From the sequence record NC_029091.1: 64,000 nucleotides of DNA, one strand, 5' to 3'. A program made the translations under genes and the position numbers. The notes below the pieces were generated by a model, which saw only the letters and a program-made list of their open reading frames with translations, had not been told where the DNA came from and ran no database searches. The number at the start of each line of letters is the position of its first letter. Positions within the stretch are counted from its first letter, which is position 1. Below are positions 43,984 through 44,669 of this stretch, piece after piece. Source of the DNA: Escherichia phage APCEc01.

Positions 43984-44214
43984 ATGTCTACTGAAACTAT
44001 CGAAAAACTGCAGTCTGAAATCGTTACTCTGAAATCTCGCATTCTTGATACTCAAGACCAAGCAGCTGCTATCCAGCAAGAATCTCAGCAACTTGGTAGT
44101 GCTCTTGCTAAAATCGCTAATCTGGTTGGTATCACTGGCGAATCAGTTAAGATTGATGACCTGGTAGAAGCAGTACGTGAACTTGTTAAAGCTGAAACCA
44201 CAGAAGAAGAATAA
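43984..44214 (+). CDS. 57A: gp57A tail fibre assembly chaperone
   Basis: 76 aa coiled-coil, position after gene 1. Confidence 0.8.
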
Positions 44215-44669
44215 TGAAATTTGAGGACTTTTCACAAGGCCTCTACGTCGCAGCTAAGTTTTCAGAATTAACACTTGATGCGCTGGAAGACCTCCAGCGT
44301 AAATTAAGAATTCCTAATCCAGTACCACGTGAAAAGCTTCATTCAACAATTTGTTATTCACGTGTAAACATACCGTATACTACATCTAGTGGCAGTTATT
44401 CTGTTGCTGAATCAGGTCACTTTGAGGTATGGAAAACTGACGACGGCTCTGTACTGGTTTTAGTTCTTGATTCTGAATATCTTAGATGTCGTCATCAGTA
44501 TGCACGAGCTTTAGGTGCTACTCATGATTTCGACGACTACACTCCACATATAACGTTATCATATAACGTTGGCCAACTATCATTCAGTGGTGATGTAGCT
44601 ATTCCGGTTATTCTCGACCGTGAATACAAAGAACCCTTAAAACTAGATTGGGCCGAAGATCTAAAATAA
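44214..44669 (+). CDS. 57B: gp57B 2H phosphoesterase (Acb1-type anti-CBASS cyclic-nucleotide phosphodiesterase)
   Basis: 151 aa; two H-x-T/S-x motifs (HSTICYS, HITLSY) typical of 2H phosphoesterases; position of T4 57B, which is reported as Acb1. Confidence 0.7.

Follow-up and report, generated by a model that had tools for sequence, protein, structure and literature searches.

The gene considered here, acb1, is the counterpart of gene 57B of phage T4 and occupies positions 44214–44669 on the plus strand of the 64,000-nucleotide stretch of the Escherichia phage APCEc01 genome (NC_029091.1) that we analyzed and call the window. The coding sequence, which is supported by its reading frame, by Pfam and PDB matches, by its identity to T4 and by its dN/dS ratio, is intact from the ATG at 44214 to the TAA at 44667–44669 and encodes 151 amino acids plus the stop. 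No start codon precedes the one at 44214 in this frame, and the start is therefore unambiguous. Open reading frames on the opposite strand within the gene reach only 30–35 amino acids. The first-pass annotation had described this reading frame as carrying the two motifs HSTICYS and HITLSY, and both are present exactly as claimed in a product of 151 amino acids, HSTICYS as residues 43–49 (with the codon of H43 at 44340–44342) and HITLSY as residues 112–117 (with the codon of H112 at 44547–44549).

The same annotation had placed the gene at the position of T4 gene 57B, which holds for all the neighbors that we compared. On the 5' side lie the genes for the DNA end protector gp2 (41683–42504), for gp3 (tail tube/terminator, 42601–43191), for the dNMP kinase gp1 (43245–43979, PF21448, E = 1.4e-96) and for the tail fiber chaperone 57A (43984–44214, plus strand, PF17594 GP57, E = 5.9e-23), and on the 3' side follows a homologue of ipI, encoding internal protein I (44747–45034, plus strand, PF11634 IPI_T4, E = 1.4e-50, PHROG 4363). 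The resulting order gp2, gp3, gp1, 57A, 57B, ipI is that of T4 (NC_000866), including the position of acb1 between 57A and ipI and the overlap of its start with the stop of 57A. In the window the TAA of 57A and the ATG of acb1 form the sequence TAATG with one A common to both (context GAAGAATAATGAAA), suggesting translational coupling, and the two genes are probably co-transcribed as well. IpI is an inhibitor of the GmrS/GmrD restriction system, and the adjacency of acb1 and ipI in T4 has been noted as a small anti-defence cluster by Hobbs et al. (PMC9117128). In the window, acb1 and ipI form such a cluster too.

The surrounding sequence also indicates the kind of phage that carries this copy. 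A 24-kb stretch around acb1 is 98.5% identical to vB_EcoM_SCS57 and 97.8% identical to ATK47 (Mosigvirus atk47), by which the phage can be assigned to the Mosigvirus (RB69-group) coliphages, whereas the T4 gene resides in a Tequatrovirus. Tegunavirus, Muldoonvirus, Lazarusvirus, Krischvirus, Tulanevirus, Pseudotevenvirus and a large Vibrio phage likewise have the block gp3-gp1-57A-57B, so that the adjacency of 57A and 57B is common to seven other genera or lineages and recurs across genera of the Straboviridae. The protein itself is 100% identical to that of phage vB_EcoM_LNA2. Proteins with at least 99% identity are found in 57 GenBank phage records and those with at least 95% identity in about 150, and a homologue is present in 1470 phage records overall.

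Searches with the protein sequence led to a single family. The Pfam family PF23474 ("Anti-CBASS protein Acb1") was matched with E = 8.5e-59 and 197.9 bits, well above the gathering score of 27, and the alignment covers residues 8–149 of the protein and positions 1–144 of the 144 profile positions. Among all PDB sequences the best match (E = 6.9e-59) was the Acb1 protein from Erwinia phage FBB1, solved in the apo form (7T26) and with 3'3'-cGAMP (7T27); of the 144 residues in the 7T26 chain 140 could be aligned, at 62.9% identity. The product of T4 gene 57B (NP_049750.1, NC_000866) is 86.1% identical over 151 amino acids with no internal gap. The T4 protein is annotated to begin with two methionines and is thereby longer by one N-terminal residue, and 21 substitutions separate it from the window protein. 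A scan of NCBIfam with the protein gave no match, the family being without a model there. By these comparisons the gene can be regarded as a clear orthologue of T4 gene 57B, encoding Acb1. It belongs to a known family, its protein sequence has already been deposited, and its anatomy and context are ordinary.

We also built a family profile from an alignment of 12 homologues and searched it against all PDB sequences. It retrieved 7T26 at 7e-67 and the 165-residue proteins 9Q2G and 9Q2Y at about 1e-18, the similarity of which to the window protein as a single sequence is marginal (E = 0.0056). By the profile, 9Q2G, 9Q2Y and the Acb1 homologues of other Straboviridae are members of one family with the window protein, and they have its invariant tetrad. 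Apart from Acb1 proteins, the only other region found by the profile was an Acb1-like one in a cyanophage portal protein, namely residues 493–609 of chain A of 8HDS from cyanophage Pam3 (E = 4.6e-08). This chain was also matched by the window protein alone with E = 0.023, with both H-x-T/S motifs covered, which suggests that the C-terminal part of the Pam3 portal protein may be a fused Acb1-like 2H domain.

A single-sequence AlphaFold2 model of the window protein had a mean pLDDT of 33.7 and a pTM of 0.27, values too low for a fold assignment. Identity at a level of about 63% implies the same fold by established practice, and from the 62.9% identity to the solved structure 7T26 a compact 2H phosphoesterase fold is predicted for the protein.

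The motif pair, from which the annotation had started, was subjected to a chance control in which the loose pattern H-x-[TS]-x was counted in the open reading frames of the window and in shuffled versions of the Acb1 protein. Two or more such motifs occur in 9 of the 88 reading frames of at least 100 amino acids and in 14.5% of the shuffles, and thus the loose pair by itself is weak, non-discriminating evidence within the range of chance. A stricter pattern (H-hydrophobic-[TS]-hydrophobic) was dropped as a criterion, as it misses the first motif, HSTI, with its serine at the second position. It is the full-length homology (E about 1e-59), far beyond chance, and not the motif pair that carries the assignment to Acb1.

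The residues known to matter in Acb1 could be followed through the alignment. According to Hobbs et al. (2022), the catalytic HxT/HxT tetrad of the T4 enzyme consists of H44, T46, H113 and T115, with H44A and the H44A/H113A mutant being catalytically dead, while Y12, W74, F107 and W147 stack on the bases, E141 contacts the adenine N6 and a C-terminal lid of residues 145–152 is seen to close above the ligand in 7T27 (PMC9117128). The residue numbers used there fit the T4 protein; in FBB1 one additional residue is inserted after position 80, and two of the aromatic positions are occupied by F74 and Y108. Alignment of the catalytic histidines with those of T4 Acb1 had been chosen beforehand as the test on which the annotation should stand or fall, and H43 and H112 of the window protein align with them. 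The whole tetrad H43/T45/H112/T114 corresponds to H44/T46/H113/T115 of T4 and to H44/T46/H114/T116 of FBB1, the first motif H43-S-T45-I being encoded at 44340–44351 and the second, H112-I-T114-L, at 44547–44558 (both on the plus strand). The stacking aromatics Y11, W73, F106 and W146 and the adenine-contacting E140 are likewise present, so that all nine published functional residues (9/9) are kept, each at the T4 position minus one, and none of the 21 substitutions (0/21) falls on such a residue. The lid, LDWAEDLK, comprises residues 144–151 including W146 (44643–44666, plus strand, from the alignment) and shows one conservative difference to LDWADDLK in T4; by analogy it would close over the ligand in the window protein as well. 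FBB1 Acb1 shares with the window protein both HxT motifs, Y12, the glutamic acid and the lid tryptophan, but has phenylalanine instead of tryptophan at T4 position 74 and tyrosine instead of phenylalanine at position 107, whereas the window protein is of the T4 type at both.

Conservation of the tetrad extends well beyond these three enzymes. The 12 aligned homologues are between 28% and 86% identical to the window protein and include, in addition to T4 and FBB1, phages of Yersinia, Serratia, Acinetobacter, Escherichia (Krischvirus), Aeromonas, Vibrio, Cronobacter, Klebsiella and Burkholderia. Only the columns G9, Y11, H43, T45, V82, G101, H112, T114 and E137 are invariant among them, and the H/T/H/T tetrad therefore belongs to this small set. 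In contrast, several distant homologues lack the lid tryptophan or carry a C-terminal extension of roughly 55 amino acids. Both features are seen in the 207-residue homologues of Cronobacter phage JC03 and Klebsiella phage Roth41 (each at 1459–2082 of the extracted locus), which have a lysine in place of the lid tryptophan and in which a spacer separates 57A from the Acb1 gene with no overlap. These two could represent a lid variant with a different handling of the ligand.

In the public databases the gene goes under another name. RefSeq and GenBank label T4 57B and its orthologues as "RNA ligase" or "hypothetical protein" (e.g. NC_000866 T4p137, NC_008515 RB32ORF142c and NC_055708 KNT12_gp106), one homologue is recorded as "putative RNA 2'3'-cyclic phosphodiesterase", and PHROG 755, which the window protein matches with E = 1.3e-65, is named "RNA ligase". 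The name Acb1 is absent from the public records of the orthologue group that we compared. The protein might accordingly be read as a general 2H enzyme acting on RNA ends, either a LigT/ThpR-type 2'-5' RNA ligase or a 2',3'-cyclic phosphodiesterase, with a role for example in tRNA repair, and tRNA genes indeed occur at a distance of about 2 kb from acb1. LigT, the 2'-5' RNA ligases and other 2H phosphoesterases do share the two H-x-T/S motifs with the window protein as well as, judged from its homology to 7T26, the 2H fold, and metal-independent chemistry via a 2',3'-cyclic phosphate is common to them and Acb1 (PMC9117128), but LigT enzymes act on RNA ends and Acb1 on cyclic oligonucleotide signals. 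The only Pfam match of the protein other than PF23474 is 2_5_RNA_ligase2 (PF13563) with E = 0.018, and this match remains at 15.5 bits below the cut-off of 27 and covers residues 77–131 only, against 197.9 bits for Acb1. With the family profile, the PDB yielded no LigT or CPDase chain at E ≤ 1. Furthermore, the base-stacking and adenine-reading residues for binding of cyclic nucleotides are all kept, and the 86%-identical T4 protein has been shown to use cyclic oligonucleotides as substrate, with a CBASS-specific phenotype and normal growth on hosts without CBASS. We have therefore rejected the LigT/RNA ligase reading as extremely unlikely on the basis of the subthreshold profile score, the PDB search and the substrate and phenotype known from T4. 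The "RNA ligase" label reflects superfamily naming with no tested function behind it, and for this orthologue group it is outdated and lags behind the characterization of 2022.

The assignment to Acb1 is also in line with the way in which the gene has been maintained. We compared it with 57B of RB32, the product of which equals T4 Acb1 minus the first methionine, and found a nucleotide identity of 75.5%, with dN = 0.126, dS of about 1.8 (pS = 0.68, nearly saturated) and dN/dS = 0.072. This ratio and the nearly saturated synonymous sites show that purifying selection acts strongly on the protein, which is no remnant in decay. One might take the 21 amino-acid differences from T4 Acb1 as a sign of a decayed or re-purposed copy, inactive or with a specificity shifted away from that of the T4 enzyme. 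Against this stand the intact reading frame, the dN/dS of 0.07, the complete set of catalytic and ligand-contact residues and the preservation of the protein at 95% identity or more in about 150 phage records; moreover, the crystallized enzyme of FBB1 is active despite its greater distance from T4, as are all nine of the other homologues assayed. The probability of such a copy is as good as negligible.

Signals for the expression of acb1 were looked for by pattern and consensus searches. At 43622–43629 (plus strand), inside gene 1 and 355 bp upstream of 57A, the sequence TATAAATA matches the late-promoter consensus of T4 and is a candidate late promoter for 57A-acb1. In the whole window this pattern has 18 matches with 8.0 expected, a number reached by none of 100 shuffles (0/100), and 12 of the 18 lie at 3.5 to 32 kb on the minus strand, a pattern that a block of late structural genes would be expected to give. 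Expression of T4 acb1 has been reported as middle/late, and cleavage activity starts about 15 min into T4 infection (PMC9117128); the putative promoter upstream of 57A-acb1 fits both this timing of expression and this onset of activity.

On the 3' side, a promoter-like site with the arrangement TTTACA-17-TACTAT and a TG, found by consensus scan only, is located at 44684–44712 (plus strand) in the 77-bp spacer between acb1 and ipI. It probably serves ipI and would then mark the 3' boundary of the acb1 unit. In the promoter and terminator consensus scan of positions 41000–46600, sites were no more numerous than in shuffled controls, and the scan thus gives no firm boundaries of transcription units. 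An Rfam scan of the whole window returned two tRNAs only and no RNA element at or near acb1.

Some further features of the region downstream of acb1 were observed. Two cassettes of the form GTTTACAT-N24-TCCTATCAAA, both promoter-like, flank ipI at 44682–44725 and 45037–45080 (plus strand). The RB32 record describes Ip genes as "flanked by 43 bp direct repeat", and the close relatives ATK47 and JK45 have one extra gene between ipI and tRNA.4 that the window does not have, annotated as the internal head protein Ip7 in ATK47 and as an unnamed hypothetical protein in JK45. This arrangement resembles the repeat-mediated shuffling that is known for internal-protein genes. The only two tRNA genes, for Met (CAT, 46541–46614) and Arg (TCT, 46621–46697), both on the plus strand, are found where T4 has a cluster of eight tRNA genes plus rnaC and rnaD, and in ATK47 an rnaC-like RNA is annotated about 480 bp downstream of tRNA-Arg.

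The function of Acb1 is known in some detail from T4. Hobbs et al. (2022, PMC9117128) traced Acb1 to gene 57B by activity-guided fractionation, and the statement of the first-pass annotation that its product degrades the cyclic nucleotide signals of CBASS agrees with that publication. Acb1 cleaves cyclic di- and trinucleotides with 3'-5' linkages that contain adenine, such as 3'3'-cGAMP, cAA, cUA and cAAA, but not cGG, 3'2'-cGAMP or cA4, its chemistry is metal-independent and proceeds via a 2',3'-cyclic phosphate, and deletion of acb1 from T4 causes a defect of more than 300-fold on CBASS-positive hosts at no cost on CBASS-free ones (PMC9117128). In an independent transposon screen 57B/acb1 was conditionally essential on a CBASS host. 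Nine further Acb1 homologues were assayed and 9/9 were active (PMC9117128); in those parts of the publication that were accessible to us, the main text does not name these nine homologues and the supplements contain no mention of an RB69/Mosigvirus-type Acb1 among them.

That the homologue likely has the same role as T4 Acb1, as had been suggested, is supported by the 86.1% identity, the match to PF23474 and the aligned tetrad, and its activity would follow that of the T4 enzyme. With a probability of roughly 0.93 we regard the gene as encoding Acb1, the anti-CBASS 2H phosphoesterase of a T4-like coliphage, and from the homology of the protein we infer its fold, catalysis, substrate range and in vivo role. 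As a small metal-independent 2H phosphoesterase it would bind the cyclic di- and trinucleotide signals of CBASS in a U-shaped pocket, in which Y11, W73, F106 and W146 would stack on the bases and E140 would read the adenine N6, with the C-terminal lid closing above them. The ligand would thereby be strained so that the 2'-OH of the adenosine can attack the adjacent phosphodiester, and H43, T45, H112 and T114 would then cleave 3' of the adenosine in two metal-independent steps with a 2',3'-cyclic phosphate as intermediate, and linear products, GpAp among them, would result. Through the loss of 3'3'-cGAMP, cUA, cAAA and similar signals the CBASS effectors (Cap4, Cap5, CapV) would stay inactive, the infected cell would not commit abortive suicide and the phage could complete its cycle. 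On hosts without CBASS the gene is probably dispensable.

A true Acb1 might also have its main target in vivo in another pathway with adenine-containing cyclic di- or trinucleotides as signals, for example in cA3-dependent type III CRISPR/NucC. Overexpressed Acb1 does perturb Panoptes, a defence guarded by 2',3'-c-di-AMP, and gave fewer colonies in a plasmid assay, but deletion of acb1 from T4 was without effect on Panoptes defence, and the only phenotype demonstrated in vivo is that against CBASS. This idea would extend the anti-CBASS role and offers no alternative mechanism. To our knowledge, type III CRISPR is not a typical defence of E. coli, and we judge a main target outside CBASS to be very unlikely. 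An equally slim chance is given to a Mosigvirus-type Acb1 that, through its 21 differences from T4, has acquired a shifted or broadened substrate range, which could include cGG, the 2'-5'-linked 3'2'-cGAMP or the decoy 2',3'-c-di-AMP. Nothing in our data points to such a shift, and the known ligand-contact residues are identical to those of T4. If it were true, it would mean a lineage-specific evasion, or detection of the enzyme by guard systems such as Panoptes.

The anti-CBASS enzyme is not the only gene of its kind in this phage. An orthologue of Acb2 (Vs.4 of T4) with 88 amino acids is encoded at 59510–59776 (plus strand), as judged from its matches to PF24729 (Acb2_Tad1_hairpin, E = 1.5e-17) and to the PDB entry 7UQ2 "Vs.4" (E = 9.8e-31). 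Its reading frame was listed in a longer form with a TTG start (59342–59776), but translation probably begins with the ATG at 59510. Acb2 serves the same purpose as Acb1 in neutralizing CBASS signals, but it is an unrelated protein that sequesters them without hydrolysis. In the window the two genes, both known anti-CBASS genes of T4, are about 15 kb apart. Between denV and regB, within the block of vs genes, we also noted a reading frame of 120 amino acids (58934–59296, plus strand) with a glycine-radical domain in residues 60–101 (PF01228, E = 2e-18); its product resembles a small glycyl-radical protein of the "spare part" kind, and the gene may be the usual one of the T4 group at this position of the vs block.

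In summary, the scientific value of this gene is small, as it represents one more conserved copy of a counter-defence enzyme characterized in 2022. Its practical value lies in curation, since RefSeq and PHROG 755 mislabel the group despite a curated Pfam family for Acb1 and crystal structures. Together with Acb2, the full T4-style anti-CBASS pair of an Acb1 hydrolase and an Acb2 sponge is present in this Mosigvirus-type phage, which is relevant to the prediction of host range among CBASS-positive E. coli, as in the choice of therapeutic phages.
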